Positions 35,490-64,000 of a stretch of 64,000 nt of DNA are shown in pieces; the first letter of the stretch is position 1; every line of letters begins with the position of its first letter. Made by a program: the position numbers and the translations under genes. Under the pieces are notes generated by a model, which was not told where the DNA came from, made no database searches, and saw nothing but the letters and a program-made list of their open reading frames with translations. This DNA comes from Nibricoccus sp. GTDB taxonomy: Bacteria > Verrucomicrobiota > Verrucomicrobiia > Opitutales > Opitutaceae. The stretch covers positions 1,856,001-1,920,000 of the forward strand of contig JASGHG010000001.1 in NCBI GenBank assembly GCA_047602425.1, given 5' to 3'.

Positions 35490-35521
35490 TTTAGACCAAC
35501 GACTTACAGAAGTTTTTGGTA

Positions 35522-35542
35522 ATTCCTGTCACATTCCTGTCA
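35522..35542 (+). repeat. Tandem 10-bp direct repeat, candidate integrase arm-type sites
   Basis: ATTCCTGTCA-C-ATTCCTGTCA between the ssrA end and the integrase. Confidence 0.55.
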
Positions 35543-35587
35543 TTTTTCGATTGCTTGTTGCAACGGATGGCTGCTTTGTTGCACCCG

Positions 35588-36910
35588 ATGGCACGGAATG
35601 CAGACAGCGATCAAGCGCGCCCGTCCGCGTTGAAATCTTGGGAGTATCCCAAGAAATCGGGCATCCGTATCCGTGAGATATTGAACCTCCATGGCGGAGA
35701 TGCCTTCGGCGGAAGTTTTCAGGTCATCGCCCCGGCCAAGATCACCGGCGGTCTGCGTGAACGAAAGCAGTTCAAGACAAAGACTGAGGCGGAAGAACAC
35801 GCCGAAAAGGTCTTCAGTGGATACAAGAAACAAGGCCACGATTTCTTCGATCTGTCCGACGAAGAACGTCGGCAAGTCGCCGTTTGCTTACCACTCCTGC
35901 GCCAGCAAGGCATCACCCTGCGCGAGGCGGTGGATTTCGCAATCAAGCGATTCTCGGTAGCAGGCAGAGGCAAGACCGCACGTGAAGTCGTTGCGGAACT
36001 GGTTCAAAGCAAAGAGCAACGTTTTCAGCGCGGGGATTTGCGTGAACGGAGTTATCGGGATTTCAGGCATCGGGCCGAAAAATTCGCCAAGGGATTTGAA
36101 AAGCGCGTGGCCGCAGAAATCACCGGCCAGCAAATCAAAGACTGGTTGAATGCTCAAAAATTGGGGCCACGAACCAACAAAAACTACATCGCGATCATCG
36201 GCGAATGCTTCCGGTACGCTGTCCAGAAACGCTACCTCGCTCTTTCCCCTCTTGATGACCTGACTGACGTCGACCGCAAGGAACTCTGTGGCAACGGTGG
36301 CGATGAGATTGAGCCAAGCATCCTCACCATCGAACAAGCTGAGAAGCTGCTGACAGCAGCCAGGAACAACCCCGACCTCGGCTTGCTGGCGGCGGTGACT
36401 CTGGGCCTATTCTGTGGATTGCGTTCGGAAGAATTAAAGCGACTGGATTGGGCCAACGTGCGTCACACCGACGCACAGCCGGTCGTGACCATCGGCGCGA
36501 AGATCGCGAAAAAGCGGCGTATCCGTCATGTGGATATACCGAAGAATGCTGTGCAATGGTTGAGCCTCTGCGTGAAGACCGAGGGGCCAGTTGCCGAAAA
36601 CAACCACACAAACGATTTTCAAAAGCGTTTTCGGAAGCTGCAAAAATTGGCGGGCTTTGGCCACGATGACGAAAAGGGCGAATGGGTTTCCACATGGGAA
36701 AACAACGCCATGCGCCACAGCTTCGGCAGTTATCATTACGCACTCCACGGCAACCCGCTGGAGACCTCACGCCTTCTCGGACACAAAGCCAGCGACCAGG
36801 TGCTGTTCGACCATTACCGAGCCCTAGCGACAAAAGTACAGGCAGAGAAATACTTCGCACTCTGTCCGCCACCGCAAAAGCAGGGTGACGCCACGATCTC
36901 AACAGGGTGA
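35588..36910 (+). CDS. Tyrosine recombinase / integrase
   Basis: GLRSEE (R), AKKRR (K), NAMRHS, LLGH, DHY catalytic residues. Confidence 0.92.
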   Translation: MARNADSDQARPSALKSWEYPKKSGIRIREILNLHGGDAFGGSFQVIAPAKITGGLRERKQFKTKTEAEEHAEKVFSGYKKQGHDFFDLSDEERRQVAVCLPLLRQQGITLREAVDFAIKRFSVAGRGKTAREVVAELVQSKEQRFQRGDLRERSYRDFRHRAEKFAKGFEKRVAAEITGQQIKDWLNAQKLGPRTNKNYIAIIGECFRYAVQKRYLALSPLDDLTDVDRKELCGNGGDEIEPSILTIEQAEKLLTAARNNPDLGLLAAVTLGLFCGLRSEELKRLDWANVRHTDAQPVVTIGAKIAKKRRIRHVDIPKNAVQWLSLCVKTEGPVAENNHTNDFQKRFRKLQKLAGFGHDDEKGEWVSTWENNAMRHSFGSYHYALHGNPLETSRLLGHKASDQVLFDHYRALATKVQAEKYFALCPPPQKQGDATISTG

Positions 36911-36977
36911 AGAATGCAGTCTTTCTTCATCCAACAAATTATCGTGAGGCTGACCGCATTTCTGATTCCAATCAGAT

Positions 36978-37447: not shown

Positions 37448-37796
37448 GCCACGAACCTAAGCATGTAGCCAATCTGGCGGCTCCGGACACGCGGCAGCCA
37501 GGGTAGTCCGCCGCGCGGCGAGTTCGCTCTGATATTGTGTTTTCAATTCAGCGAGCCGCGATAAATCGCCATGATCGCCCTACGCCAAGCAGGTCGTCAC
37601 GACCAGCGGTGTCGTGACTGTGGTCATCCACACCCAAGCGAAGGTCGTAGCGAATAGCCTGTCGCTTCGTTCACCCACACGGCACAACCACCAGCGCAGA
37701 ACTATCACCGGCGATCCGGCGTGAACCACGTTCCCGATAGCGAGCGGTAGTCGCAATCGCAGGCATGTCCGCCACGGCGGAACGTCCTTTTTCACC

Positions 37797-37946
37797 GGAG
37801 CATTCTTGCTCTCTCTGGCAGTCCCTCCCACCGGAACGCCGCTGCGCGGGCAGGTTCGTTTTGGTCCTCCTTGAAAGGAATCCCCCCAACCGCCCCCTCG
37901 TTCCGGTCGGCACCCCCGCCCTTAGACGAGAGAGCAATCCCGCTCC
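37797..37946. other. Long nested stem-loop (ssDNA promoter / ssi-like candidate)
   Basis: GGAGC/GCTCC, TTGCTCTCTC (37806-15)/GAGAGAGCAA (37928-37), ACCGGAACG (37830-38)/CGTTCCGGT (37899-907). Confidence 0.55.
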
Positions 37947-37967
37947 TCAAAATCAAAAAGGAACATC

Positions 37968-38267
37968 ATGCCCGCCAAGACCGCTCAACCCGCCTCGCAA
38001 CCCAAGAACGCTGCATCCGCATCCAAACTGCCGGTGAAAACCTTCCGCCTCGGTCGCATTAAAGCCGCCGTATGGGAGAACGAAGCCGACCTGAAGAAAT
38101 ACTATAACGTAACCTTCGCCCGGACCTACGTGGATGAAGCGAAAAACTACCACGACACCGACAGCTTCGGTCGCGACGACCTCCCGCTCGTCGCCAAGCT
38201 CGCCGATCAGGCGCACACATTCATCTTTGAGCAGCTCGCGAAACTGAAATCCGAGCAGAGCGAATAA
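37968..38267 (+). CDS. Small protein, possibly PC4-like ssDNA-binding
   Basis: RBS AAAGGAA; RLGRIKAAVWEN...YNVTFARTY...DSFGRDDL; own terminator; fold assignment is inference. Confidence 0.7.
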   Translation: MPAKTAQPASQPKNAASASKLPVKTFRLGRIKAAVWENEADLKKYYNVTFARTYVDEAKNYHDTDSFGRDDLPLVAKLADQAHTFIFEQLAKLKSEQSE

Positions 38268-39477: not shown

Positions 39478-40200
39478 CTAGACGGTTACCTCTGGAGATT
39501 TGTCTGTGGCAGCTGTCAGTTTGCGAATTCGCCGTTGAAATCCCGGACGAAAAACGCCCTCAGGCGTAATATGCACGTAACCTTTTTGCACAGCATAACA
39601 CATAAGCTCGCCCTTCTGGTGCAGGCCCAACTTTCCCATAATTGCTTTCCGATGGGTATTAACCGTGTGCGGTGACAACCCCAATCGTTCCGCCGCCCGT
39701 TGATCGTCGGAACCATCCCCAATGACGGACAAGACCATCTCTTCCTTATCGGTGAGCGCATCTAGCGTGATGTTTTTAGGGCGCTTCACGTGAGGCACGA
39801 ACGTTGGGCTGACATAAATCTCTCGCTCAATCACGCGCTGTAACGCCGTGTGGAGATGGGCCAGCCCTTCGGCTTTCACGTCGAAAAGCCCGTTGTACCG
39901 AACCTCTCGCAGTAGGCATAAGGTGCGTGAATCCTTCCGGGCCGTGACGATCAAGACAGGCAAATCACGCTCAATAAAGGGCTCCAGATGTTCGAGCCCG
40001 TCCATATCTTCGATCTGCACCCCCGTGATAAATATGTCCGGCATACTCGCCTGGATTGCTTCCAACGCATCGAATCCTTTTTGAAATACTTCAACCTGGG
40101 CACCACGCCAATATTCTTTGATCTGCCGACAAATCATATCGCCATAGAGACGGTTGGCTTTCAGCACGACGATACGAGGCGCGGCAGATTTGGGCGGCAT
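39478..40200 (-). CDS. LuxR/NarL-family regulator with atypical receiver domain
   Basis: C-terminal LTDKEEMVL...AAERLGLSPHTVNTHRKAIMGKLGL; REC-like N-terminus lacking the phospho-Asp (PDIFITGVQIEDMDG). Confidence 0.85.
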   Translation of the reverse strand: MPPKSAAPRIVVLKANRLYGDMICRQIKEYWRGAQVEVFQKGFDALEAIQASMPDIFITGVQIEDMDGLEHLEPFIERDLPVLIVTARKDSRTLCLLREVRYNGLFDVKAEGLAHLHTALQRVIEREIYVSPTFVPHVKRPKNITLDALTDKEEMVLSVIGDGSDDQRAAERLGLSPHTVNTHRKAIMGKLGLHQKGELMCYAVQKGYVHITPEGVFRPGFQRRIRKLTAATDKSPEVTV

Positions 40201-40202
40201 TG

Positions 40203-41129
40203 TCAGGGAGTAGTTGGAGTGAGTGTCAGTTGTTGCCCATCCGCATGAGGCACCAGCCGCCCGGCCCCGTCACCACCGCCCAGCAATTCCTGCGCGAGGG
40301 CATTGCGGATCAAAAGTTCAGTAGCATCACGCATCGGACGCGCACCAAGCCGTTCGTGGTAACCGCGCTGTATCACGACTTCCGATACAGCTTTCTCTGG
40401 TGTGATTGCGAAGCCGCGTGTCGCAAGCGCAGAGCATTCCTTCGCGATCATCCCGCCGGCAATCGCGCACTGAGCATCAAAATCGAGTTTATTGAAGACA
40501 ACCGTGACGGTGATGCGCGCAAAGATTTCCGGACGGAGTTCGCGTTGCGCGTCCTGGCGCACAAGACGCTCCATCGTTTCATACTTTGATTTGCGCATTC
40601 CCATGATGCGCTGCGCACCGATGTTACTCGTGAGCACGATATACCATTGAGAGAAATCCAACACCCTGTTACGCCCGGTAGTCAGACGAGCCGCGTCGAG
40701 CAGTTGCAGCAGCACGTCGAGGACGCGTGGATGAGCTTTCTCGATTTCGTCGAAGAGCAATGTTCCGCGCCCCTCGCACGCATCGAACCCTTCGGCAATG
40801 CGACCCGCCTCATCGCCTGTACCGAGAAGAAGCGCCAGGCGATCTGCCGTCTGATATTCCGACATGTCGAGTCGAACTACCCGGTCAGCACCAATCAGAT
40901 CTTCGGTGAAGCGAAGCGTGAGCTCGGTTTTACCAACGCCAGTTGGCCCAAGAAACATGAAGCTCGCTTTAGGGCGACCGGCCGTCGTCAGGCCCAGTTC
41001 ACCGTGCTGGAGCCGTTCGGCCACGAGATCGATAGCCATGTCTTGCCCTGTGAGCACGGTCTTGAGGCGCGTCGAAAGCGAGCGTAGTTGCTCGCGCTTC
41101 GCATCAGTCAGGATCATAGAGCTTACCAT
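40203..41129 (-). CDS. Stand-alone ClpB-D2-like AAA+ ATPase
   Basis: GQDMAI, RPKASFMFLGPTGVGKTE, LDMSEY, LLFDEIEKAHP, TSNIG, RPE, LGARPMR. Confidence 0.85.
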   Translation of the reverse strand: MVSSMILTDAKREQLRSLSTRLKTVLTGQDMAIDLVAERLQHGELGLTTAGRPKASFMFLGPTGVGKTELTLRFTEDLIGADRVVRLDMSEYQTADRLALLLGTGDEAGRIAEGFDACEGRGTLLFDEIEKAHPRVLDVLLQLLDAARLTTGRNRVLDFSQWYIVLTSNIGAQRIMGMRKSKYETMERLVRQDAQRELRPEIFARITVTVVFNKLDFDAQCAIAGGMIAKECSALATRGFAITPEKAVSEVVIQRGYHERLGARPMRDATELLIRNALAQELLGGGDGAGRLVPHADGQQLTLTPTTP

Positions 41130-41677
41130 TTCACCTCCGGATTCTGATTCTTTACCGGGCCTGAGGCAGGAGCGACCGGTGCCGATTCTGCCAGCGCAAC
41201 CGTGCGCTGACGATTGCGCTCTGTTTCCAATTGCTCCTTCAACTTGAGCACATCGGCACTCTGCCGAACCAATGTCGCGAACAATGCTTTTACCTTTTGC
41301 TCCGCGTCAGCCATCGTTGCTTGAGCCGTACGCATGTCCGTCGTGACCTGACGTTGCTTGGCAAGCTCTACATCCAACTCCGCGCTAGCTGACAGCGGTG
41401 AAAAGCTCGGCGGTGGAAACGACGTCCGAGGTGTGGATTCAAGAACGTTGCTCACAAATGACGGGACCCGCGTGCGCCGATACACGGCGTGCGGCTCATG
41501 GCGAAGCGCCGGGTTCGCCGGTTCGCGATAGCTACGCATCTCGTATCGCGTTTCCGCGTATTTGACGGAAGAAGCCACTTCCAGCGGTCGCAACGGTGGA
41601 ACACGATCAAGGACAGCTGGCTCGTTGGCACAGCCCGTCAAAAGAACGGTGAGCATAAAAATCGGCAAGAAGCGCAT
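41123..41677 (-). CDS. Lipoprotein in the tra operon
   Basis: Lipobox LLTGC; coiled-coil C-terminal half. Confidence 0.7.
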   Translation of the reverse strand: MRFLPIFMLTVLLTGCANEPAVLDRVPPLRPLEVASSVKYAETRYEMRSYREPANPALRHEPHAVYRRTRVPSFVSNVLESTPRTSFPPPSFSPLSASAELDVELAKQRQVTTDMRTAQATMADAEQKVKALFATLVRQSADVLKLKEQLETERNRQRTVALAESAPVAPASGPVKNQNPEVKW

Positions 41678-41679
41678 AT

Positions 41680-43728
41680 TTATTCCTTTGGTTGGTTCGG
41701 TTGAGAAAGAGGAACGGTCTCGATCTCTGGGCGCGCGGGCGTGTCAGGCTGTCGATTTTTCACGCCAGCAATACTGGCTTTCTGCGGATCAACCGCCTCT
41801 CGCACGTAGACGTAAAATTCTTTTCCGGCTGCCACACGGACGAAATAGCCGTTTTCTTCGATGTCCTTCAGCGTACGTTTCGCGTAAAGGTTAAAGACAT
41901 CGCCCGCACCTTCGCGAACTCCGTTCGAAAGTGAACCGGTGATGGTTGTCCCTAAGGCGTTTTGCTGGCGGTCCTGCGTCCCGCGCGCAAAGCCGCTCAG
42001 TGCAGCCGAAGCGAGCATCTTGAGTTCCTGCAGATCGTCGCTGGCCACGATGCGACCCCTGATTCCACCTGAACCATCCGTTATGCCATAACCATCGATG
42101 TCCTGATCGTATTCGCGATCCAGCGCTACGCCGTTGAAAACGAGCTCGCGCCCGTCCTGCCAAACAAACCGCCAAGCGCCGGTCGCCGTGATCCGATCGC
42201 GCAGGCGTCCCGCGCGTGCCGTGCCATGCACTAGCGTGTTTGCCGGGATGATCTTTTTTCCGTTTTGCCAAACGTCTTCGAGCAATACCGCGATGAGCGG
42301 CGTTTCGAGATTCGCGCTGTCGATCGTGTTAACGAGCTTACACTTCAAGAGTGTGCCGAAGGGGATGAATCGCTCGGGCGGTTGTTCCGTTTTGTCAGAC
42401 TTACCGGCTGGTGCGTCATAGCTGGCAAGCAATGAAGCGTAGCGTATTTTTTTCGGTTTTGGCTCTGCCTTGGCCACCGCTGCTTTCGCGTTGGCTGGCG
42501 TCGAGTCAGACGTACCGTTTTGCGCAGCTACTGCCGACACTGGGCGGAAAGGAATGATGCCGTTTGAAGCGACCTCGTCATTTTTAGCTGTCTTCGTTGG
42601 TTCTGGATTCACCTGCTGCGGAGTTCCGCTTTCCAATCCTTGGGTCAGTGGCACCTTCACCTGGCCAAGTTCGACTTTTTTGTTTTTATGCGCGGCCAGC
42701 TTCTCTGCTTCGCGCTGGCTTGCCTGGTGTTTTCCGTAAATCCAAAGACCGGAAAACAGGACAATGACAAAGATGACGAACAGACCGAATTTGCTTTTGA
42801 AAAAGAGGGCGAGTGAACGGGGATTCATCGGCGCGCAACCTCCCTTTGCACGACCGGAGTCATGGAGAGCTGCGTCGGACCGGCGAGCGCAGTTGACGAG
42901 GATCGTGAATGCGTTGTCGACGCTCAGATCGTTGCGTGTGCCATCCGGCAACCCGACAATGGCGAACTCAGCTTCGGCGATTTCGCCTGGTTGGAGGACG
43001 CGTGGGCCATTGGCAATCGATTGCTCGAAACGTTCCTGCACGATGCGTGCAGCAAACGTATTCGGCGCAATATCGATCACGCTGTCCGTCGTGTTGCGCA
43101 GCTTCAGGAGAAACACCACCGCATCCTCTTTCGAGAAACGGTAAATCTCCTGCACGGTGATTTCGATCTCCGGTAAACCGATAATACGATTCGGTGTCCG
43201 CTGCGAAACGCCCTCGACCGCTTTCGGCAGCGCCTTCACCAGGAAAGGATATGCGCGCGCACGATCAAGGAGACTCAAGCCAATGCGTGGAGAAAACTTC
43301 ACTACCTCCGGCACTGACTCGACGCGTGCAGCCGTCTGCGCATCGGCGCGTTTGAAGATCGCACTGGCGACCGAATCGCCTTCGACCGACTGTAATTGGA
43401 GGACGTATGCGCTTCCCTCGAATATCGCCGTCAATCGTCCGGCTGCGCCGGGTTGGAGGCTTCGGATCAGGATAAAATTACTTCCGGGTGCGTGGGTGAC
43501 GTGAAACCGAACCGCTAAATCCTCCTCAATTTCAACCGCCGCCCCACCCCGGTCAATCAGCATGTCGGCACCCGCCACGGCAGTCAGTGCGCCGGGAAAT
43601 ATCACCGTCGTAATTTCACGTGATACTGGCAGGTCAACCGACCGTGTGGGATCGAGAAGAAAATCGCGGATTGGCTGAGCGTGAAGCAAAGATGCGGAGA
43701 AAAATGCCAGGCTGAAGAATTTCCACAT
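41680..43728 (-). CDS. In-frame fusion of a TraK/VirB9-like secreted protein (43728 to about 42830) and a TrbI/VirB10-family protein (42828-41680)
   Basis: Signal peptide and TTVIFP at the N-terminus; internal GGAGG RBS plus ATG at 42828 followed by a TM; IPFGTLLKCKLVNTIDS...IIPANTLVHG VirB10-like domain. Confidence 0.7.
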   Translation of the reverse strand: MWKFFSLAFFSASLLHAQPIRDFLLDPTRSVDLPVSREITTVIFPGALTAVAGADMLIDRGGAAVEIEEDLAVRFHVTHAPGSNFILIRSLQPGAAGRLTAIFEGSAYVLQLQSVEGDSVASAIFKRADAQTAARVESVPEVVKFSPRIGLSLLDRARAYPFLVKALPKAVEGVSQRTPNRIIGLPEIEITVQEIYRFSKEDAVVFLLKLRNTTDSVIDIAPNTFAARIVQERFEQSIANGPRVLQPGEIAEAEFAIVGLPDGTRNDLSVDNAFTILVNCARRSDAALHDSGRAKGGCAPMNPRSLALFFKSKFGLFVIFVIVLFSGLWIYGKHQASQREAEKLAAHKNKKVELGQVKVPLTQGLESGTPQQVNPEPTKTAKNDEVASNGIIPFRPVSAVAAQNGTSDSTPANAKAAVAKAEPKPKKIRYASLLASYDAPAGKSDKTEQPPERFIPFGTLLKCKLVNTIDSANLETPLIAVLLEDVWQNGKKIIPANTLVHGTARAGRLRDRITATGAWRFVWQDGRELVFNGVALDREYDQDIDGYGITDGSGGIRGRIVASDDLQELKMLASAALSGFARGTQDRQQNALGTTITGSLSNGVREGAGDVFNLYAKRTLKDIEENGYFVRVAAGKEFYVYVREAVDPQKASIAGVKNRQPDTPARPEIETVPLSQPNQPKE

Positions 43729-43734
43729 AGGTTT

Positions 43735-44400
43735 TCATGTTTTAATTGGTTCGACTTGGAACGCCGCGACCGCAGTCGGGAATCGTCCGTTACGGGTCAG
43801 GTCGGGGTTCACCAGAAATTTGAACTTCACCCGGTAGCGCAGGACTTCGGTGATCGGTGCGCCTTGATATGCGCCGACACGGATCAGCTGGATGTCCGCC
43901 GAGGTGTAGAAGGCATTGTCACGCGTGCTGAGAACTTCGGGAGGGCCGATTTCAACTTTCTGGTGAAGAGACTTTGCCTCGAATTCCGCCTTGGTCTTGC
44001 CGAGCGCAGTCTGCGCGACTTGCGCCGCATCGCGCAAAAAGAGCTGTTTGAAAAGCTCCGGATTATCCAAGCCCGCTGGGTTGCGTTCGAAGAGCGCCTT
44101 GCAAGCGAGCTTGGTCTGCATCGCGTGCAGATCTTTCGCCTGTTGAATATCGACGACCGCCGAAACGTAATAGGTACCAAGACTGTCAATCAGCACGACC
44201 TCACGCTTGTGGGTGAGTTTCGCGATGAGTTGTTGACGGTCCCAAGCCGACCAAATCCACGCGGCAATCGCGATAACGAACCAAATCAATGAACTACGGC
44301 GTTGTCGCTCGAATATCGCGAGCAACGAGTTCTTCTGTTTGCCGAATTTAGGCACGGCAGGAGCCTCCACCCGCTGGGTGGCCTCGGAAGTCTCTGTCAT
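43735..44400 (-). CDS. VirB8/TraE-like bitopic T4SS protein
   Basis: Single TM near the N-terminus; C-terminal VNPDLTRNGRFP; lies between the VirB6-like and VirB9-like genes. Confidence 0.55.
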   Translation of the reverse strand: MTETSEATQRVEAPAVPKFGKQKNSLLAIFERQRRSSLIWFVIAIAAWIWSAWDRQQLIAKLTHKREVVLIDSLGTYYVSAVVDIQQAKDLHAMQTKLACKALFERNPAGLDNPELFKQLFLRDAAQVAQTALGKTKAEFEAKSLHQKVEIGPPEVLSTRDNAFYTSADIQLIRVGAYQGAPITEVLRYRVKFKFLVNPDLTRNGRFPTAVAAFQVEPIKT

Positions 44401-44407
44401 AGTTAGG

Positions 44408-44602
44408 TTATTTCTTGTGTGGTTGCTTTGTCCGCTGAGTCTGAACTTTTTTAGGAATAGGAGGTGGGTCGCTCTCCGATTCGTCATCGCGCAAAAACTC
44501 GCCCAAGTTTTTCGCGATGGTTTCTTCCGCATCAGCCAGACGCTTCAAAGCCCGTGCTGACTTCTCAAGTGCTTCGGTGTGTCGTCGGTTGGTGTTGAAC
44601 AT
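44408..44602 (-). CDS. Small hypothetical protein (64 aa)
   Basis: MFNTNRRH... fills the gap between neighbours with 4- and 7-bp spacings. Confidence 0.5.
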   Translation of the reverse strand: MFNTNRRHTEALEKSARALKRLADAEETIAKNLGEFLRDDESESDPPPIPKKVQTQRTKQPHKK

Positions 44603-44606
44603 AAAA

Positions 44607-45788
44607 TCAAATATCGAGCGCTTCTTTGTTTGGATCATCATTGTGTGGTTGATGGTCAAAACCGCTACGGCTTTTCTTTTTCGAACGATTATGCGCGAGA
44701 ATTTCCGCAGCCATCTTCTCAGAAGTAGCAGCTCTGCGAGTATGAGCTTCAGCTGCCATTTCAGCAGCAACCGTATTCCTCCGCATGTAGCTACCTTGAT
44801 AAAAACCCGAAAGTCCATTGATTGCTGTACTCGTGGTCCGGGCTGATCCACCTCCACGTGCAGCCGATTCACTTCCGGTCGCCAATGTTCCAACAGCAGC
44901 CGCTGCGATCACCGCAGGTGCGGCTCCACCACCGGTCGCAACGGTGACCGCCGCACCAGTACCGCCAGCGAACGCCGATTGCATGACCCCACCGATCCCT
45001 TGTCCCATCGCTGCGGCCGGGTTCGCTCCCATCAACAGAATTTTCGTCGTGACCCATGGAGCCAGAATCGAACTGATCAGCATCCACGCCCCAACAAGCA
45101 GCACCGTCAACGCTGGCGCAGCGAGTGGAGCACCAGCTATGAACACTGGAAGCAAATTCGCCGTCGCAGCAGCATCGAGCATTGCGTTAGTCACAACTGC
45201 GGCCATCACCCAGCCGAACGGCCAGCAGACGAGAGCGATCAAGCCGAGCAAGAAGCGTTGAGCAACTCCGGCCATCGGTCGAACCATGAAGAACGCGAGG
45301 AAGATCGGACTGATCGACCAGCCGGCCGTCAGCAAAACACCGCCGATGAGTTTCACCACGTATTGAACTCCCCACGACAACCAACCGAACAGCCACAAGA
45401 ATGCGTATGATATGGCCGTGCCAATCGATTTGGTTCCCCAGATGATATCCCACACGCTAGAGTTGGGATTAGCCGAGGTTTTGCCGGCAATGAACTGAAC
45501 AAACCGGTCGTCTACCGCAGTAGGGTCGACACCCATCATCGCCGAGAACGCATAAACAATATCGTTCAGCCTCATTAGCCACTCACGCAGAAAAACTGTG
45601 CTGATCCCGATGATGAGCACTTTGGTCAAAAGCCAGACGAAGGAGCTCGCGTCTGGACGGCTTCGCACTGTTTGAAAAACCAAGCCCGCAGCCACAATCG
45701 CGCTTCCAACATACGCACAGCCGCCCCACAACGTGGAAAGGCCATCGAAGTAGGAAGACGGAAGTATGGTGCCGAAAACAGGGAGCAT
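44607..45788 (-). CDS. VirB6/TrbL-like polytopic T4SS protein
   Basis: Multiple TMs (SPIFLAFF...WPFGW) and Gly/Ala-rich tail. Confidence 0.75.
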   Translation of the reverse strand: MLPVFGTILPSSYFDGLSTLWGGCAYVGSAIVAAGLVFQTVRSRPDASSFVWLLTKVLIIGISTVFLREWLMRLNDIVYAFSAMMGVDPTAVDDRFVQFIAGKTSANPNSSVWDIIWGTKSIGTAISYAFLWLFGWLSWGVQYVVKLIGGVLLTAGWSISPIFLAFFMVRPMAGVAQRFLLGLIALVCWPFGWVMAAVVTNAMLDAAATANLLPVFIAGAPLAAPALTVLLVGAWMLISSILAPWVTTKILLMGANPAAAMGQGIGGVMQSAFAGGTGAAVTVATGGGAAPAVIAAAAVGTLATGSESAARGGGSARTTSTAINGLSGFYQGSYMRRNTVAAEMAAEAHTRRAATSEKMAAEILAHNRSKKKSRSGFDHQPHNDDPNKEALDI

Positions 45789-45801
45789 CGATAATTTTAG
45801 T

Positions 45802-47370: not shown

Positions 47371-47390
47371 GCTTATTGGTTAGTGGTTAC

Positions 47391-51745: not shown

Positions 51746-51878
51746 AGGTACATCTCCGCTAAGTTGAGTCGGCACTTGTGGGGGCCGGAACCCACGCGAT
51801 TAGCTACGTCCTTCAGTAAGGAAAATCGCGCTGGTAAACTTCTTCCGAGCGACGATTAACAAGACAATGTTAGGCCCC

Positions 51879-55471: not shown

Positions 55472-55517
55472 GCAACCATCACGGTCGAACTCATCACTTA
55501 CCTCAACAGAGCGCGCC

Positions 55518-55556
55518 CTCCGTGTTTGGTGTAGAGAGCCTACCGTAATCGGTGTA
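55518..55556. promoter_or_regulatory. Tandem 16-bp operator-like boxes upstream of the relaxase
   Basis: CTCCGTGTTTGGTGTA (55518-33), 7 bp, TACCGTAATCGGTGTA (55541-56). Confidence 0.6.
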
Positions 55557-55721
55557 TCAGCCCGAATATTTTTTGCGCGTTTTCGGAGATCATTGGCTAC
55601 GACAAGCGGTGTTGGTTTTCGGAAGGCCCCCGTGCTTTTTTGGAAACAGACGCAATACCCGCTTGAGTTCGCGGTTATCTGAAATCAGCAAAAAAGCGCC
55701 CCACACCAGGCAGCCAGCATC

Positions 55722-55737
55722 TACCGTTTTTTCGGTA
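55722..55737. promoter_or_regulatory. 16-bp operator-like box upstream of the coupling protein
   Basis: TACCGTTTTTTCGGTA, flanked by C and G. Confidence 0.6.
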
Positions 55738-55794
55738 GGTGGCCATTCTCGCGACTCCAGTGCTGTAATGGTGCATTAGGTGCACCGACACGCG

Positions 55795-57422
55795 ATGAAA
55801 CGACTCCCGGCACCCGAAATTTTGATCCGCCAATGGCTACATAATCCGCATGCCGTCACGGTTGCGACGTTCGTTTTGGCGGGCATTTTCCTTGGGATTG
55901 CGGGCTGGTTGATCCACCGAAATCTCCGCCACAATGAACCGGGTCTGCGTGCGCCGTTGGCATTGCCGTTCGCTTTGATCATCTCCGCTGCCGGAGTTTT
56001 CGGCGCATGGCGGCTCCCGTCGCCATGGAATATTGGAACAGGCGCAGTTGTGTGTGCGCTCGCCGCGTTACTATTCTACTACGCTGATCATCGGCGGTGG
56101 GTTCGTGACCCAGTTGGCAAGATCGTCGCGGATCGCTGGCAAATTGTCCTCACGTTTGCTGGCTTCCGGTGGACACGCGACAAAGCCAACCGGCATTTCT
56201 TTTTCTCCGGTGACACCGGCTCTGGCAAAACCTCCGGCATGAACGGACCTTGCTCGCTGCGTTGATTCGCCGCAACCCGACGCTTGGCGGAGTAGTCATG
56301 GCGAACAAAGGCGACGAGTGGTTTTATCTCGAATGGCTCGCCAAAAAATACGGTCGTACTCAGGACATCATCCGCCTTCGGCCGCGTTTGGTGGGTGAAA
56401 CAGGCAAACCGCTCCACCGGCTTAATGTCACGGGCGACGCACGACTGCCGTTTACCACGCGCGCCCGAATTCTCGTGGATACCGCCGCCGCCCTAAATCC
56501 GAAGGACGAAAAGAGCTTTTTCAAAGTGAAAGGCGCAGCCCATATCGGCCGGGCATTCGAACTTTTGGCCGACATCGGCCGGCCAGTCACCGCAACCAAC
56601 GCCTATGATTTACTCACATCAGAAAAGGAACTACGTGCCGCACTCGACAAACTCACCGAAATCGATCCGACCGAACGTCGTATCCGTTTAGCTGAGACAT
56701 TTGAACAGACCTATCTCAAGCATGAGGCAAAAGAGCAGCGCGCCGGTGAAATCGGCACTTCACAAAACTATCTCGAATACCTCGGCACTCCGGAAATCGC
56801 AGAAATCTTCAGTTCAAATGAACCTGATACGTGCTCCATCGCCGATGTAGATAAGGGCAAAATCTTCTGCATCGACGTTCCCCAGGACTATACAACCGAA
56901 CGCCAGTATATATTCACTGTCGCAAAATTGCTGCTCTATCGACACGCCCTCCGCCGCTACGCGCTGCCGCCGTATCAGAAATACACACTCAACCAGCTCA
57001 TTTTTGTCGGCGATGAATTTCAAAATGCCATCACCGCCAGCCACGACGGCACGAGTGATTTTAACGTGATCGATCGCTTGCGTGATTGTATGTTGATGCT
57101 GGTTGTATCGGCGCAGGCTTTCGAATCGCTCATCCCGCCACAGACCAAGGAGCAGGCCGAAGTGTTTGCACTCAATTTAAAGAATCTCTTCATGTACCGC
57201 GCGGCGTCAGAACTCGACGCACTTCGCTGCGCAAACGCCCTCGGCAAGCACTGGGTCGAACGCGCGTCACGGACAGTGCATCAAGATCATACCGCGCACA
57301 CTTATCAGCGAATGGAGGAATTTTTGATCAAGCCACATGAGTTTCGAAACCTCCCCGACCACGTCGCCGTCGTACGGCATTGCACGAACGGTTTTAAAAA
57401 AGTTAACCTCCGCCCCTCCTAG
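55795..57422 (+). pseudogene. Type IV coupling protein (VirD4/TraD-like), frameshifted near 56248
   Basis: ORF1 has TMs and Walker A GDTGSGKT then stops at 56265; ORF2 (56250-57422) continues LLAALIRR with Walker B FVGDEFQ. Confidence 0.8.
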
Positions 57423-57442: not shown

Positions 57443-57724
57443 ATGAATTCCGCAGACAAATCAGAAATCAGCGTGCAGACATTGCTCGCACTCCGCCAGG
57501 AAAGTGACGCCCTTCGTATCATTACCGAAAAACTCCGCGTGAAGGAGATGGGGCCAGCCGACCACATCCGGACCAAACACGAGGTAAAAGCGTTTATGGA
57601 ATCGGGTGATATCAATGCTGCAAAAGCCCTCATTAGTCGCTCACGGGCGCGCATGCCGCTCGATGAACTAACAAGAGAGCAGGTCGCTCAACGCCAGAAA
57701 TCGCAACAAAACCAGGGGGTTTGA
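57443..57724 (+). CDS. Hypothetical protein (93 aa)
   Basis: ORF 20 bp after the coupling protein; helical. Confidence 0.55.
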   Translation: MNSADKSEISVQTLLALRQESDALRIITEKLRVKEMGPADHIRTKHEVKAFMESGDINAAKALISRSRARMPLDELTREQVAQRQKSQQNQGV

Positions 57725-57913: not shown

Positions 57914-58288
57914 TCAGTTCGCGATTTTCAATAAATCACCGATCCCGTTCAGATTGCGCCTAGCGGTCAAAAATCCAATGCCTCGGATAATATGATTGCG
58001 CAACAATTCCGAAATTACTTCCCGAGTCGCCGGTGTCCTTTCTATATGTGCGCGTTGAATCAATAGCGCCGAATAGATCTCGGCGTACTCGCCAGCGAAA
58101 GTCTTCCAGGACATTTCAACTGCAGCTTCGCCGCTAACTTTCAGTCGCGGTGGGCTATTTTTATCGGCGATGGAAAGGCAAAACGCCCAACGGCAAAGTA
58201 CATTCCAGTTCTCAATGCCTGTAATGCGTTTCAGTCGTATGAGCTGATCGCGGGATTGTTGGCCAAGACGAATATTGTCGATGAGCAT
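57914..58288 (-). CDS. dndE: DNA sulfur modification protein DndE
   Basis: LIRLKRITGIENWNVLCRWAFCLS...EMSWKTFAGEY...HIIRGIGFL. Confidence 0.92.
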   Translation of the reverse strand: MLIDNIRLGQQSRDQLIRLKRITGIENWNVLCRWAFCLSIADKNSPPRLKVSGEAAVEMSWKTFAGEYAEIYSALLIQRAHIERTPATREVISELLRNHIIRGIGFLTARRNLNGIGDLLKIAN

Positions 58289-58289
58289 T

Positions 58290-60261
58290 TCAGTTAAAGA
58301 AGTATCCCGGGACTACCGCGGTGGATTGAGTCTCCGGAGAATAAGAGAGCTCAAAGGTGCGCGTTATGCGCGAATGCAAAGTAGCCAAATGCTTCGACCC
58401 GATTTCCTCGTCTGTGGAAAGGATAATCACTTGGTGACTTGCGTATGGGAAATAGTTTTCAACTAGATTTGAACGGTGGTGCGAATCCAGTCGGCCCAAT
58501 GGCGTATCAATGATTGTTGGAAGTGGTCGTCCGGAGGCGCGTGCGAGTCCCCAAAGCGTTGAGATAGCTAACAATTGACGTTCTCCAGCGGAGAGACGGT
58601 CCGCATGCAATTCGTGTCCGGTCTCTCGGTATAGAGTCATACGATAAGTTTTTGGATCGATCTTTATTGCGCTTACAAAATCCTTTTTGCGAACCAACTG
58701 CTGGAAGGATTCCAAAATCAGGTTCTCGATCTGCTTGATCTTTCTCTCCAAAACTCGGATTCGAAATTGCTTCATCGTTTCGCGGACCTTCGCTGCAAAT
58801 TTGATCTTACGAGATGCGTCGTCCTTAGCGGCTGACTCGATGACATTCTGCTCTAGAATATTGGCAATCGCACGTTCCTGTTCCTCGACCAGACGTCGCA
58901 TTTTTTCTATCTGCTCGGTGAGCATGCTACTTTCCACCTGCTTCTTCACTAGATTTTTTTGAGCAATTGCGAGCTCCTCCGATGCTTGAGCGATAGCGGC
59001 TTCATCCGGAACACGCGCTAATGTTTCATCAATACGCATTACTTGTTCATTCAGCTGAGCGTATTCTCTTGTGAGCTTCGAACACCGCTTCCGTATTTCC
59101 TCGAATACCGAAGGTGTTATTCTCTCCAAGCTTTGTATAGCTGACTTATCCAAATTGAGAAAGCACTCGATCTTAGTGGTATGCTCGCGACGTTTACGGT
59201 CGGCACTGAAAAGCGCATCGAGCTTATTTTGGGCCGCCGCAGGAAAAGATGCTGCACGCAATATCGCGCGGTCGCGTTTTTCGAGTTCAGCAAGCATTAG
59301 ACGTTGTTGCTCAGCGGACTCCTCACGCTGCGCTTGATTACACACATCTGCAACCTGTGCGTTTACGATCAAAAGCGGCGCAACGCCTGCTGCTATTTCT
59401 CGCATCTCGTGTTCTATCCGGTCAAGCTGCGCTCGGGCCGACTCACGCTGGGCGCCAAGTTCCTTACGGCGGGCGAAAAGATCACCGCCCTGCCGACGAA
59501 AATTGGCTTCCTCCTTCTCAACTCTCTTTTGTAGCTGATCTGTCTCGTTTTGCAGCTTCCCCTTTTCGAAAAGAAGGTTTCGAAGCTCTTCTTGAAAAGA
59601 AACGTGCTTTGCTTCCCGTTGCGTCAGCTCGGAAGACCCTTGGCCGCCATGCTGATCCTTGGAAATATCACGTTCATATACGACAAGGTCCTTCTCCAAT
59701 CGATCAACCAGATCAATACCAAGCAGCGTATTAATTGCCGTCGTGAGCATCGACGCGGCATTGTCGGACCTCGGCCAGGCGAGCGATTTGTTCACCATCA
59801 AAAAAGAACAGCTCCGCTAGTCCCACAGGCACGAATTGATCCACATGCTCTAGCCAGTTTTCAGCCAGATCCAGATCACTGACGTTGTCACGTAGCACCG
59901 TCAGGGTTTCGGATATGCTTTTCCCAGTCGGCACCCATCGTCGAGTGATAATAAACTCGTGAGTTTGGGCATCGAAGGTTTGCCGAATTTCCAATGACAC
60001 ACTGCCGCCTTCACCGGGCAACGCGCCGTGCGAAATGGACCTTCGAAGAAACTCATCGTAGGCAAGGTTTCCGCGCGTGGAACAACGGCTCAACTTTCCA
60101 AAAAGCGCAAGTTGGATCGCATCCAGTAGGGTAGTCTTACCACCGCCGTTTAGTCCGCCGAAAAGTACGATGGGCTTCTCACGAGATGTTGGCGAAAGAT
60201 CGATTTCGTGAACGCCCGCGTAAACGCCAAAATTTTCCAGACGAAGTTTCCGAATAATCAT
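58290..60261 (-). pseudogene. dndD: DNA sulfur modification protein DndD (SMC-like ATPase), frameshifted near 59770
   Basis: ORF1 LENFGVYAG, GLNGGGKTT, LFFFDGEQI; ORF2 LLGIDLV, coiled coil, LSAGERQ, IIDTPLGRLD, LSTDEE. Confidence 0.88.
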
Positions 60262-62162
60262 GTCGTGATGGCCTCCGCCGAAATGTCCTTGTTTTCAAAA
60301 CGGCTGCGAATTCGTTCACGCGCACTCTGACGACGGATCGCCATCTGAGTGGCATCCTCTTCATTTTCATAGAAGCCGCGCTTGATCGCATCGTCTATCG
60401 CTCCAAATAGGCCAGCACGTCGGGACATTGTGCGAAAGCGGCGTTCTACGTCGAGAAGTTCACGCGCAAGCTCATAATGCACCCGATCTCCAGCACATAC
60501 TTCGTGTAGGATTGCCATTTCATCCCGCCCAAACATCAAGTTCTCATCGAGTGTTTTCCCTGGATATTGCTTCCCGGAGGCTTGTTCAAATATGGTCGGG
60601 AGCGAGTCCTCGATCTCGTGTTTCTCTACAACCCAAATCCGCCGGATTTCCTCCAGCTCATGAAGAGTGATCAATTCCATAGTTTCGGCGTGCTGGATTC
60701 CGCTCTCCCGGCCCAGCTTTCGTACAGCTTCTTGTGTTTTTAAAAGTTGAAAGAGTATTTCCTCGCGAGCTTGCTGAGTATAAGGGCCGTGTACTGACCG
60801 CCCATTGTAAATCGTGATGCTGCCATTCATACGGCGAAAATCACGGCGCTCACGATCAGTTTGTTCGTCACGTCGCCCGTCAGCTGGTCGAAAATCTAGG
60901 TATTTATTTCGGAATACTAGCAGAGGATACATCCATTCCTTTTCCTCGTCGTTTTGTACCATTGCGGACATCGACTTGTCTTTATCCACTAACGTGCAAA
61001 CCCAACAACCAAAGCGGCTGTCACCACAGCTTGGCGTTGAGGTATCAACTACTAGGGGGCACTCGCCGTCCGCCGAAGCCCCTTGATACATTGTTAACAG
61101 ATCCTTGTTGTTGTAACCCCAAGGATTCGAAAACTGCATGAGGAACATCCACACCTCATCATTAGTCCAGTCCTCAATTACTGAGTAAACGAGAGTTCCC
61201 GGTAGCGATGAGTTCGGGCTAAGTCGATCTCGAACCCGATATTTTTCGTGTTCGATCATCGTACGCTGACGCCGTTGGCTTTCCTTTTTTCGAGTTCCAA
61301 GCAAAAGGATAGCTTCACCATTGCCACGAACGATTGAACCAATAAACGCATTGGAAGGGCTAATCTTCATTCGTTCTGTGCACCATCTGAATTTATGACG
61401 AGGTGCAGGATAGCCTTTCCCTATCAGATTAACCCAATAGGTATTTTCGACACTTGGAGTCAGTCGCTGCGCGCGGAATGGCATCCTCCGATCAATTGCA
61501 GCGCGATCCATTTGGGAAAGTGATGCACCGACCCACTGAGCAACCACAGGATTTTCAACGAGCGTGTCAGTGCTGATCACATGAATAGGCTTCGTTCGCT
61601 GCTCCACTGGCAGCTCTTCGATTGCTTGCCATGTAAGTTGGACCACGGCTGTGGAGTCTTTTCCTCCACTATAGCCAATAATCCACGGAACAGGGTCGGC
61701 GAGATAGAGATCACGAATTTCTTGCCGCAGAACCTTTAGGTCATCCCTAAAATTGCGGCGATTTTCTCCGTTCCCAGAATGTGTAACACGGTTTTTCTTA
61801 TCTGCAGCCTCAAGGAAAGGGATAACGGTTTTGCTTCTGACACTCGCGCTTAACCGATCGAAGTCGCTCTCCCGAAATCCCCAAAAAATATCTGAATCAG
61901 GCACCGTAGCATTAACGCTAAGCACCGACAATGCATCCGCCAAAGTTTCGCGACTCCGTTTTTCGTCGTCTGGAAAAAACACTAATAAGTGTTTTTTTAT
62001 AATCCCTGCGGCGCCCACTGTATCCTCTCCGATCCTCTCCTCCGTAACGCCAAGTTGTTTGGCTAATACTGGCAACGGGTCATTGTCGTCATTAAGTACT
62101 ACAAGATGCACAACAAGCCCAATGGATTGGGCGAGGATCGTTGACCAAGTCGCGTACATCAT
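60258..62162 (-). CDS. dndC: DNA phosphorothioation sulfurtransferase DndC with N-terminal extension
   Basis: PWIIGYSGGKDS, DTLVENP, IGKGYPAP..FRWCT, ECPLVVD..TPSCGDSRFGCWVCT; true start may be 62196. Confidence 0.92.
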   Translation of the reverse strand: MMYATWSTILAQSIGLVVHLVVLNDDNDPLPVLAKQLGVTEERIGEDTVGAAGIIKKHLLVFFPDDEKRSRETLADALSVLSVNATVPDSDIFWGFRESDFDRLSASVRSKTVIPFLEAADKKNRVTHSGNGENRRNFRDDLKVLRQEIRDLYLADPVPWIIGYSGGKDSTAVVQLTWQAIEELPVEQRTKPIHVISTDTLVENPVVAQWVGASLSQMDRAAIDRRMPFRAQRLTPSVENTYWVNLIGKGYPAPRHKFRWCTERMKISPSNAFIGSIVRGNGEAILLLGTRKKESQRRQRTMIEHEKYRVRDRLSPNSSLPGTLVYSVIEDWTNDEVWMFLMQFSNPWGYNNKDLLTMYQGASADGECPLVVDTSTPSCGDSRFGCWVCTLVDKDKSMSAMVQNDEEKEWMYPLLVFRNKYLDFRPADGRRDEQTDRERRDFRRMNGSITIYNGRSVHGPYTQQAREEILFQLLKTQEAVRKLGRESGIQHAETMELITLHELEEIRRIWVVEKHEIEDSLPTIFEQASGKQYPGKTLDENLMFGRDEMAILHEVCAGDRVHYELARELLDVERRFRTMSRRAGLFGAIDDAIKRGFYENEEDATQMAIRRQSARERIRSRFENKDISAEAITT

Positions 62163-62195
62163 CGTCGGAGAGCAGAAAACGCTGATTTTTGTCCA

Positions 62196-63344
62196 TTAGG
62201 AAATCCGATTTAGCGTAGAAGGTGTGTTATGTTGCTGGTGAAAGGCATCCTCGATTCGCTGCTCTTCATCGCTCAGCCGGAGCTTAAGTTCTTTCTTAAT
62301 CAAATTCCTGGTGAGGATCGGATGATTGCCGCCAGTGGTTAACCGACCTGCATTCATCGCACGTCCCTCCCAATCAGAATTTGACCGTTGCCAATCGAGC
62401 CTACCGACAGCAACGAGATCACGCTCCCATGTCTTGGGACGCTCCTTAATCAACTGATTGACGCTCGCTGCCAAGCCCTGCAACGCGATCGAATAGGGGT
62501 AAAAATATGTCTCCTTTACCTCCTGCGCCATGACTTTGCCAGCAACCATATCCTTTACTTTTGGTAAACAACCTTCGAGCACGCTCCAAAAGCGCGTACA
62601 TAGTTCGGCATCTTTAGGTACCTCTTGTGTCAGCAGATCTTTCAGCAAAAGCCCGTGAGCCTTATCCAGAGCGCTGATAGTGAAAATGCGAGGGGAGCCA
62701 ACTGCGCAGCTCGAAGCGAACAATTCAACCCGATCACGAAGAATATCACATCTATCTATAGTATACTTCGTAACTGCTGATAAGTAGGGACGGCTATCGA
62801 ACGTTGTCGTGATATTTCTATTAGTACGAATTGGATGACCATTCAGGTCAGAGAACATTTGCCGCGCCCGCTTCACACCACGATCAATGTAAAATACAAC
62901 ACCCAAAGTTTCCATCTTTAGCTCAGGGCGTCGTTCAACCGCGTGCTTAATTGCGGCACACCTGTGCTGACCATCGTTGATAATTAAATCAGCACTTTGG
63001 GGTACATGAAGAATTCCAACCTGCAAATTCTCGCGTTCCTCACTCAACGGCTCAAAACGCACGTCGCCATCAATGGAGGCGATTATCGGAGGGAGAATGT
63101 AATCGTCAAAGTACTTAACCAAGTAGTCAGCAATCTTGGGTATACGTGATTTGTTGATTTGCCGCTGAATCACTTTTTCTGGCGGCAGGCTCTCAGGCGG
63201 GAACGGTAAGTGCTTCACAATGAAGCTCAAAGGACACATTGCCATAAAGTATTGGCGCCCTGCCTGAATACCTCTCAATACCGGTAGCGATAAAACAGGA
63301 GCGACGCTCGGTAACGAGGGAGTAGCTTCAATTTTTCGCGTCAT
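62196..63344 (-). CDS. dndB: DNA sulfur modification regulator DndB (DGQHR domain)
   Basis: RGIQAGRQYF, QRQINKSRIPKIADY, INDGQHR, QMFSDLN, DWQRSNSDWEGR. Confidence 0.9.
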   Translation of the reverse strand: MTRKIEATPSLPSVAPVLSLPVLRGIQAGRQYFMAMCPLSFIVKHLPFPPESLPPEKVIQRQINKSRIPKIADYLVKYFDDYILPPIIASIDGDVRFEPLSEERENLQVGILHVPQSADLIINDGQHRCAAIKHAVERRPELKMETLGVVFYIDRGVKRARQMFSDLNGHPIRTNRNITTTFDSRPYLSAVTKYTIDRCDILRDRVELFASSCAVGSPRIFTISALDKAHGLLLKDLLTQEVPKDAELCTRFWSVLEGCLPKVKDMVAGKVMAQEVKETYFYPYSIALQGLAASVNQLIKERPKTWERDLVAVGRLDWQRSNSDWEGRAMNAGRLTTGGNHPILTRNLIKKELKLRLSDEEQRIEDAFHQQHNTPSTLNRIS

Positions 63345-63411
63345 TATACTATAATCTTGAAAAATTATGCCTTCCTTGGCAAGACTTTTAGTATAATTTC
63401 AACTCAAAACA

Positions 63412-64000
63412 ATGGACCCAGTTTACCTCGATTGCGCAGCAACCACCCCCATTGAACCTGCTGTGGCTGAGGCTATTCTGCAGTACACGACGGAAGAATT
63501 TGGCAATGCAGGCAGCAGGACTCACGAATACGGAAACCGCGCTAAAGTAGCGGTCCAAAAAGCACGCAGTCAGGTCGGGCAGCTGGTTGGTGCTCCGCGG
63601 GAAGATGTTATTTTTACGAGCGGTGCCACCGAAAGTAACAATCTGGCAATCCTTGGGCTAGCTGCATTCGCGCGAACAAATCAAAAGATGCATATCATCA
63701 CTTCCAGCATCGAGCACAAAGCCGTTCTGGAACCCTTTCACAGACTAAGCGAGCAGGGTTTTAAGGTTACATGCATCGCTCCCGGACCCAAAGGTTTTAT
63801 TGAACCCGACGCACTTTCCAGTGCTCTGACTGCTGACACTAGTTTGGTCTCATTGATGCAGGTAAACAATGAGACAGGCGTAATCCAACCGCTTTCGGAC
63901 TACTGCAAAGTACTCCGGAAGCACCACGCATTCTTTCATGTAGACGGGGCACAGGGCATCGGCAAATTGCCGCCCGAACAAATCGATCCACGTATCGATT
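63412..64000 (+). CDS. dndA: Cysteine desulfurase DndA (partial), divergent from dndB
   Basis: Translated by eye: MDPVYLDCAATTP, FGNAGSRTHEYG, FTSGATESNN, IEHKAVL, VNNETG, HVDGAQG; open to the window end. Confidence 0.88.
   Translation, partial: MDPVYLDCAATTPIEPAVAEAILQYTTEEFGNAGSRTHEYGNRAKVAVQKARSQVGQLVGAPREDVIFTSGATESNNLAILGLAAFARTNQKMHIITSSIEHKAVLEPFHRLSEQGFKVTCIAPGPKGFIEPDALSSALTADTSLVSLMQVNNETGVIQPLSDYCKVLRKHHAFFHVDGAQGIGKLPPEQIDPRID

Follow-up and report, generated by a model that had tools for sequence, protein, structure and literature searches.

In conjugation systems of mating-pair formation class T (MPF-T), such as R388 Trw and IncP Trb, the core genes lie in the order virB2-3-4-8-9-10, and virB11 is found after virB10 or before virB2 (PMC3548315). 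The VirB11 ATPase sits beneath the VirB4 hexamer in MPF-T, and the role of the third ATPase in type IV secretion is an open question (PMC12624023). In this study, we analyzed a 64,000-nucleotide stretch of a Nibricoccus sp. genome (Verrucomicrobiota, Opitutaceae; GCA_047602425.1, contig JASGHG010000001.1, positions 1,856,001 to 1,920,000), called the window below. It holds the left part of an integrative conjugative element (ICE) of about 93.5 kb, inserted in the 3' end of the transfer-messenger RNA (tmRNA) gene, with its right end beyond the window. The ICE shared with R388 the order pilin-B3-B4-B5-small lipoprotein-B6-B8-B9-B10, a MOBF relaxase-helicase close to TrwC (family hidden Markov model (HMM), E 1e-131) and an R388-like motif at its probable origin of transfer (oriT). 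It differed from MPF-T in having no VirB11, VirB1 or clear VirB7, in a VirB4 that fell outside the T references, in extra glycine-zipper and terminal lipoproteins, and in a ClpB-type ATPase at the virB11 positions. The two ATPases on which the analysis centers are the following.

48012..50714, minus strand: VirB4 ATPase of a Verrucomicrobiota clade (PF19044; trees)
40203..41129, minus strand: ClpB-NBD2-like AAA+ ATPase (profiles, fold)

The AAA+ protein showed the fold of the second nucleotide-binding domain (NBD2) of ClpB with all of its ATPase motifs. Its model had a predicted local distance difference test (pLDDT) value of 96.8 and matched ClpB C-terminal (NBD2) structures with template modelling (TM) scores of 0.88-0.90 at about 32% identity. 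Walker A, Walker B, sensor 1, arginine finger and sensor 2, as we take these motifs to be named, were invariant in 45 sequences. The architecture of a ClpB/Hsp100 disaggregase was absent. The protein had no N-domain, NBD1 or M-domain and covered only positions 548-834 of the 853 in the ClpB profile, as a single domain of about 305 aa; homologues had 278-410 aa among the 120 matches listed, in a search restricted to 169-539 aa. Unlike ClpB, ClpC and ClpV, it has a deleted GYVG pore loop and a family-specific segment predicted to bind VirB4. None of the 34 aligned members had the loop, whereas the two host Clp controls both did; a GYLG found further along in 4 of 92 members is unrelated to it, and one clade keeps a GY remnant. 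The gained segment reads S-x-x-x-T-x-E-R and is conserved, and residues 174-189 differ from the host's own Clp proteins. The only further proteins from a fold search among viruses were Clp proteins of phages. That a Clp ATPase can serve one secretion system has a precedent in ClpV of type VI secretion.

An earlier note on this DNA had counted the AAA+ gene among the accessory genes. The gene is indeed there, but it was found in 35 of 36 VirB4-positive genomes and in 3 of the 365 others (38 of 401 in total, two profiles combined), G127 being the sole VirB4-positive genome without a match. We also compared 84 full loci, a set in which the window is included, two loci are entered twice, one pair is identical and about 48 belong to the close clade. 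The AAA+ gene was present in 77 of them: in 51 after virB10, in 23 divergent before the pilin gene and in 3 co-directional before it. In five of the seven exceptions the same contig carried it behind the coupling protein gene, at a distance of 19-48 kb. Overall, it occupied four positions (after virB10, before the pilin gene, before virB8, behind the coupling protein gene), and it also occurred on the TAV5 plasmid (L232), upstream of B8-B9-B10. The sites after virB10 and before the pilin gene are the two operon sides where virB11 is found in MPF-T (PMC3548315). The AAA+ ATPase is a distinctive, near-obligatory part of the lineage and not a mere accessory. As a separate observation, the TAV5 copy (L232:1049-2101) looks circularly permuted, with a C-terminal small-domain segment preceding Walker A.

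VirB11 and VirB1 were recognized in the ICE neither by the earlier note nor by our profiles. No PF00437 or TIGR02788 match (VirB11) and no PF01464 match (VirB1) lay inside the element; the eight PF00437 matches and the single PF01464 match of the genome were all elsewhere. VirB11 was likewise not found in 121 loci, where ten strong PF00437-type open reading frames (ORFs) occurred, four of which were checked and were PilB/GspE/PilT-like. In distant relatives (L153, L158, L166, L191, L208), type IV pilus clusters with PilB/PilT-like genes lay beside the conjugation operon; IncI plasmids likewise carry type IV pilus genes beside conjugation genes. The earlier note had set this absence against MPF-T systems, which usually carry VirB11. 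The absence itself stands, but it is ordinary outside MPF-T, since VirB11 is seldom present in systems other than MPF-T (19%; PMC4027160), and it is unremarkable here because the VirB4 is not an MPF-T or MPF-F member by the tests run.

The relationship between the AAA+ protein and VirB4 was investigated by complex prediction. The AAA+ protein with VirB4 residues 422-900 (the C-terminal domain) scored 0.62, against 0.00 for the best control. Of 157 solved pairs, 116 attained this score mark, as did 2 of 215 mismatched ones, counts that hold only roughly because the analysis's own alignments were used. At least 97% of the contacts were shared between runs, and the partners had pLDDT values of 84 or more. 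We know of no solved Clp-VirB4 complex, and a pass from model memory therefore seems unlikely. In the predicted interface, AAA+ residues 174-189 face VirB4 residues 549-560 and 648-659, with S181 of the AAA+ protein conserved at 82% and D553 and E654 of VirB4 at 76% and 82%. The histories of the proteins were compared as well. In approximately unbiased (AU) tests on 19 loci, the AAA+ alignment narrowly accepted the VirB4 tree (p-AU 0.051) and rejected the coupling-protein tree (0.0009). In distant loci, AAA+ distances correlated with those of VirB4 at r 0.86, compared to 0.50 for the relaxase; across all 55 loci VirB4 (0.964) and the coupling protein (0.969) did not separate.

The predicted VirB4 interface, the place of VirB11 beneath VirB4 and the shared gene positions together suggest, with somewhat better than even confidence, that the AAA+ protein is a third ATPase of Clp origin that takes the place of VirB11. 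In this mechanism, the integrase would excise a circle at the 3' end of the tmRNA gene, the relaxase would nick oriT between the relaxase and coupling protein genes, and the coupling protein would pass the relaxase-DNA to the channel. The AAA+ protein would hydrolyze ATP as a ring, as expected from its retained Walker A/B, sensor 1, arginine finger and sensor 2 motifs, and its S-x-x-x-T-x-E-R segment would bind the C-terminal domain of VirB4. It would most likely dock under VirB4 and drive or switch the VirB4 conformation, as VirB11 does in MPF-T, so that the VirB11 job would have been taken over by an unrelated gene. The new part is the conserved Clp-derived ATPase with its predicted VirB4 interface, and the machine is possibly a new class. 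More specifically, a ninth MPF class native to Verrucomicrobiota, in which a ClpB-derived, pore-loop-less AAA+ ring docked on VirB4 replaces VirB11, is a tentative proposal to which we give slightly less than an even chance. An unrelated, well-studied Clp fold at the third-ATPase position would allow a direct test with named interface residues, and, if true, such a convergent solution would reveal which tasks a third ATPase has to fulfil in type IV systems.

Several points weigh against a VirB11 stand-in. All of the evidence is computational. The complex score is a model confidence for a monomer pair built on our own alignments, with VirB4 as the one partner tried. The AU test on the AAA+ alignment is weak because it rejected the VirB10 tree too (0.007). 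The AAA+ census used profiles built from VirB4-linked copies, thresholds set to exclude ClpB and five scored candidates per genome, and the close clade was oversampled in the locus counts. Three fragmented genomes had the AAA+ gene with no VirB4 detected, and two of their four loci adjoined a coupling protein gene; in two separate clades the AAA+ gene lay directly behind the coupling protein gene, up to 48 kb from VirB4. Finally, conjugation in the classes F, B, G, C, FA and FATA for the most part works without a third ATPase (PMC4027160), so that no replacement is needed in principle.

The positions behind the coupling protein gene raise an alternative that we consider unlikely, namely that the AAA+ protein acts on the DNA-transfer side, as a partner of the coupling protein that unfolds or remodels the relaxase for export. 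The two genes were adjacent and co-directional in L209, L211, L215, L217, L218, L224-L226, L228, L266 and L267. Relaxases need unfolding by an unfoldase that is not known (PMC5826034), and the AAA+ protein is of ClpB ancestry. However, its GYVG pore loop is lost and the remnant variable, its history agrees more closely with that of VirB4 than with those of the coupling protein (AU) or the relaxase (r), and its predicted interface is on VirB4.

A role as an assembly or recycling chaperone or as a regulator, and not as a working motor, appears more doubtful still. The variants of this explanation share that low probability between them: the protein might take the VirB4 ring apart as ClpV would, or it might act together with the LuxR pseudo-regulator or with Clp rings of the host. 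Disassembly is as compatible with VirB4 binding as docking is and would suit a Clp-family ancestry, and the AAA+ gene adjoins the LuxR gene in the close clade. LuxR was present in only 48 of 84 loci, however, against 77 for AAA+, and the AAA+ protein lacks both an N-terminal substrate domain and a pore loop for threading.

We then turned from the AAA+ protein to the class of the machine that it accompanies. The VirB4 scored below every class cut-off: 44.7 against 643.1 bits for VirB4_CagE (T), 69.4 against 567 for TraC-F, its best profile match, and 25.5 against 261 for Bacteroidetes TraG. The VirB4 tree was built on the C-terminal domain with 25 rows, ten family members and 15 references for eight classes (three T, four F, and one each for B, G, C, I and FA); it supersedes a quick tree made without pCF10 that gave long-branch warnings. 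The family formed one clade (support 98.6/98) on a long stem of 0.97, outside the T and F references and set off from T with support 99.9/100. AU tests rejected no sister grouping of this clade, including one with T (p 0.42). As for MPF-B, G, C, I, FA and FATA, the VirB4 was below the cut-offs where a profile matched and grouped with none, B, G, C, I and FA being represented by one reference each.

The ICE resembled MPF-F in its best VirB4 profile and in a B9-like fold closest to F-type outer-membrane-core chains, and MPF-B in weak DUF4133 and DUF4141 matches, as in Bacteroides systems; both classes also lack VirB11. It differed from them in the low TraC and TraG scores and in its minimal virB-like operon. 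No F mating-pair stabilization family was found among the 25 window ORFs and the 46 of 68 downstream ORFs scanned for TraN, U, W and H, which we take to be the F-specific set. Despite the virB2-3-4-8-9-10 gene order, which this operon has, the VirB4 is not an MPF-T or MPF-F member by the tests run.

The family occurred in 36 of 401 Verrucomicrobiota genomes (14 of 34 in the host's taxonomic family), often in two copies. VirB4 matched 457 stretches of the genome collection, and among the 80 of these that were listed the closest named records were Opitutaceae. With E values up to 1e-30, the family profile matched 575 clusters (50% identity); of 20 distant VirB4s looked up by cluster, two had a taxon name, in both cases Verrucomicrobiota. 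The cultured Opitutus terrae has a VirB4 that is 77% identical to that of the ICE. Among 72,556 plasmid records only two gave good VirB4 matches, both Opitutaceae, the others reaching E 1e-6 at best. MOB-suite gave no MPF for either plasmid and labelled the TAV5 plasmid only 'mobilizable'. These results support the conclusion that the conjugation machinery is a distinct type IV secretion system (T4SS) lineage of Verrucomicrobiota, widespread in the phylum. Verrucomicrobiota are abundant in soil and water and have few genetic tools; the lineage is a conjugation route for them that escapes standard typing, and its elements carry Dnd defence and polysaccharide-use genes.

That the machine is instead a very divergent MPF-T (or F or B) system that lost VirB11, with the AAA+ gene as a hitch-hiking accessory, is improbable: the virB gene order, a B5 closest to TrbJ and the unrejected T sister grouping among only 15 references speak for it, and the long-stemmed VirB4 clade outside T and F, the two Opitutaceae records among all plasmids and the retention of the AAA+ gene in 35 of 36 genomes across four gene positions, hardly to be expected of an accessory, speak against it.

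The distinct ICE and MPF lineage of Verrucomicrobiota that the earlier note had suggested was supported: its VirB4 does not nest among the sampled references of the described classes. Of the three observations that the note had named as telling against it (VirB11 elsewhere in the element, a VirB4 nested among references, a missing attR), none was made. Our search of freely available papers found no description of a Verrucomicrobiota conjugation system or of a Clp-type ATPase in a T4SS. The main texts of PMC12857230, PMC4027160, PMC3158045 and PMC3548315 do not contain 'Verrucomicrob'; supplementary tables of the classification papers may assign Opitutus VirB4s to a class.

The transfer operon spans 39478-51775 (12.3 kb, minus strand), with co-directional genes in virB order, and its gene order agrees with the one given in the earlier note. 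VirB4 follows the VirB3-like gene and AAA+ precedes the LuxR gene; the other genes, in operon order, are as follows.

51332..51775, minus strand: VirB2-like pilin (PF04956 E 1.6e-4, under cut-off; position)
50717..51316, minus strand: VirB3-like (weak DUF4133 E 0.002 and TIGR03750 E 0.017; position)
47391..48008, minus strand: acidic protein with no assigned role (close clade only; 48 of 84 loci)
46885..47370, minus strand: glycine-zipper lipoprotein, conserved in the family (PF13441; 78 of 84 loci)
46079..46888, minus strand: VirB5/TrbJ-like (TIGR02780 E 4e-8; family HMM against R751 TrbJ E 2e-10)
45802..46041, minus strand: 79-aa lipoprotein between virB5 and virB6, at the entry-exclusion position (lipobox in sequence)
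44607..45788, minus strand: VirB6-like polytopic membrane protein, 393 aa (position, hydrophobicity; 84 of 84 loci)
44408..44602, minus strand: 64-aa ORF at the virB7 position, without lipobox (sequence)
43735..44400, minus strand: VirB8-like, 221 aa (Atlas VirB8/DotI/TraE clusters, scores 0.94-0.99)
41680..43728, minus strand: virB9-like fused to virB10-like (B9 from 43728; B10 has its own ATG at 42828)
41123..41677, minus strand: conserved family-specific lipoprotein, Cys16 invariant (78 of 84 loci)
39478..40200, minus strand: LuxR-type regulator with a pseudo-receiver domain (PF00072 and PF00196)

Gene identity is firm for B4, B10, B9 and B8 and moderate for B5; the pilin, B3 and B6 assignments are weak and largely positional. 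The virB10-like part matched PF03743 at E 1e-21, and the top six fold matches of the B9-like model, made from the separate protein of a sibling element described below, were all T4SS outer-membrane-core chains. The VirB8 family was annotated on 27% of the members of the top Atlas cluster. The VirB6-like protein had no Pfam match, and its family HMM weakly matched a pCF10 transfer ORF (E 3e-5). The acidic protein had no family match in the profile libraries or PHROG. A lipobox ORF occurred in 43 of 92 virB5-virB6 intervals, the position that holds EexN in R388 and TrbK in R751. The lipoprotein at 41123..41677, a candidate outer-membrane anchor, gave no coherent Pfam among 59 members and matched only unnamed Atlas clusters. 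LuxR belonged to the close clade in nearly all of its loci, and its receiver had Gly at what we take to be the phospho-Asp position in all 46 parsed of 50 homologues. Some distant members (loci of G166, G342, G369, G055 and G097) had two tandem VirB8-like genes or a 900-1240-aa gene after VirB4.

The relaxase and the coupling protein form a divergent pair, as the earlier note had said, with the coupling protein split in this copy (161 + 390 aa).

52368..52754, minus strand: 128-aa ORF travelling with the relaxase (locus comparison)
52751..55471, minus strand: MOBF relaxase-helicase, 906 aa (PF08751 E 7e-67; NF041492)
55472..55779, no strand: probable oriT, the 308-bp gap between relaxase and coupling protein genes (conserved motifs)
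55780..57422, plus strand: type IV coupling protein, divergent from the relaxase, split (weak PF02534 and PF12696)
57443..57724, plus strand: 93-aa ORF behind the coupling protein, close clade (45 of 84 loci)

MOBF assignment followed from NF041492 (154 bits against a cut-off of 100). The coupling-protein family HMM matched the R388 coupling protein at E 2e-9, and the sibling's protein is intact at 546 aa. In the gap, a hairpin-plus-motif at 55646-55660 (minus strand) resembled the R388 oriT motif and was present in 31 of 56 relaxase-coupling protein loci; an inverted repeat at 55721-55738 was conserved in 39 of 56. The gap is probably oriT, with an inferred nick position. A separate element of the same genome (L230:8405-15121; 1.14-1.15 Mb) had an integrase, a MOBF relaxase (55% identical), the 128-aa partner and, at 73% identity, part of the oriT region, but neither coupling protein nor MPF genes; it is probably a mobilizable element that could use this ICE.

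The ends of the ICE were determined next. The earlier note had placed the integrase against ssrA and predicted a second copy of the ssrA 3' end downstream, and both were found.

35136..35489, plus strand: tmRNA gene (ssrA), integration target (ARAGORN; Rfam RF00023 147.8 bits)
35467..35492, plus strand: attL core, copy of the tmRNA 3' end (blastn, pattern search)
35522..35542, plus strand: two ATTCCTGTCA repeats, probable integrase arm sites by inferred role (repeat search)
35555..36910, plus strand: tyrosine integrase, 451 aa, directly after the tmRNA (PF00589 E 4e-10)
37703..37966, plus strand: conserved leader of about 260 nt (sequence comparison)
37968..38267, plus strand: conserved 99-aa ORF after the leader (sequence comparison)

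In positions counted from the start of the window, attR lies at 128,964-128,989 and matches 25 of 26 bases of the attL core (blastn). A further tmRNA 3'-end copy lies at 149,482-149,514 (31 of 33 bases, blastn). We take the nearer copy as attR because ten-base repeats lie just inside both ends and the right end of the sibling matches there: three more ATTCCTGTCA repeats lie at 128,822, 128,833 and 128,865, and 5 of the 18 genome-wide matches on both strands fall within 150 bp of the two att sites. The sibling, a 55.7-kb element at the same tmRNA site of another genome of this genus (G168), has its second att copy 55.7 kb away. Its tmRNA-adjacent integrase is 99% identical to that of the ICE, and its right end is 92% identical to 127,112-129,009. 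The copy at 149.5 kb was ruled out as the ICE end, since 128.99 kb is where the arm-like repeats and the right end of the sibling place it. The relaxase, the frameshifted coupling protein and the VirB4-based T4SS all lie between the att sites, and with the integrase and the attL/attR direct repeats they qualify the element as an ICE.

Genomic islands integrated in tmRNA genes are a known class (Islander, PMC4383910). This ICE shares with them a tyrosine integrase beside the target, a displaced 3' fragment at the far end and a tandem island behind, and has nothing unusual among them. The ICE integrase was found in 2 of 201 genomes, and related conjugation modules had other integrases and other insertion sites. 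The tmRNA target is specific to this ICE, not to the conjugation lineage, and is an ordinary kind of integration.

A second copy of the leader lies at 126,751-127,011 (plus strand), and another relative also has the leader twice. Its fold reached z = -2.26, and 10 of 200 shuffles were as good. This duplicated non-coding leader may be a single-strand promoter with a weak fold signal. The 99-aa ORF behind it had no family match and no PHROG match and is possibly, by its likeness, a single-stranded-DNA-binding protein. An Rfam scan of 35-58 kb gave no match besides the tmRNA.

This copy carried frameshifts. The virB9 and virB10 genes, read as one 'B9-like/B10' gene in the earlier note, do form a single 682-aa ORF here, but through a +1 insertion near 42879 relative to the sibling. 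The fusion occurred in 1 of 94 loci holding both genes, which were separate in 93, and a natural fusion was ruled out on this count. A +2 insertion near 56249, relative to the sibling, interrupts the coupling protein immediately behind Walker A; this protein was split in 2 of 68 loci. In addition, dndD in the cargo was split into two ORFs. A baseline comparison with G168 flagged frameshifts in 13 of 174 orthologues from the host and in 3 of 22 from the element; the majority of the host flags appear to be spurious ORFs, and the baseline is blind to the B9-B10 fusion. Of the sequencing runs searched, none contained half of the window's sequence words; three contained 6-7%, and no RNA run was listed. 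Decay is likelier than special design, and the copy is probably decaying and no longer self-transmissible; assembly error at 42879, 56249 and dndD is the alternative to decay.

The earlier note had carried the conjugation region to 64000. The conjugation module is there, but from 57.9 to 64 kb the window holds cargo.

57914..64000, no strand given: cargo with dndE, dndD (two ORFs), dndC, dndB and the start of a dndA-like gene (profiles)

The GC content of the cargo was 0.51, compared to 0.56 in the backbone. Across 57914-64000 plus L234:1-11700 the Dnd phosphorothioation cluster is complete, and behind it come genes for an Mrr-like nuclease, another DndB-like protein, an SMC-like ATPase and a PLD-helicase. 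Cargo beyond the window, with 46 of 68 downstream ORFs scanned, included restriction-like genes, a RepB/ParB-serine recombinase unit, polysaccharide-use genes and a toxin-antitoxin pair. The cargo of the ICE is exchangeable. The sibling element carries a divergent Dnd cluster with 65-67% DNA identity. Behind attR, a second tmRNA-bounded island of 20 kb lies in tandem at 128,990-149,514 (L237, L238), in which no integrase was recognized. It holds an RHS protein and about ten paralogous proteins of 260-410 aa with repeated GIGT-type motifs, the three scanned having no Pfam match.

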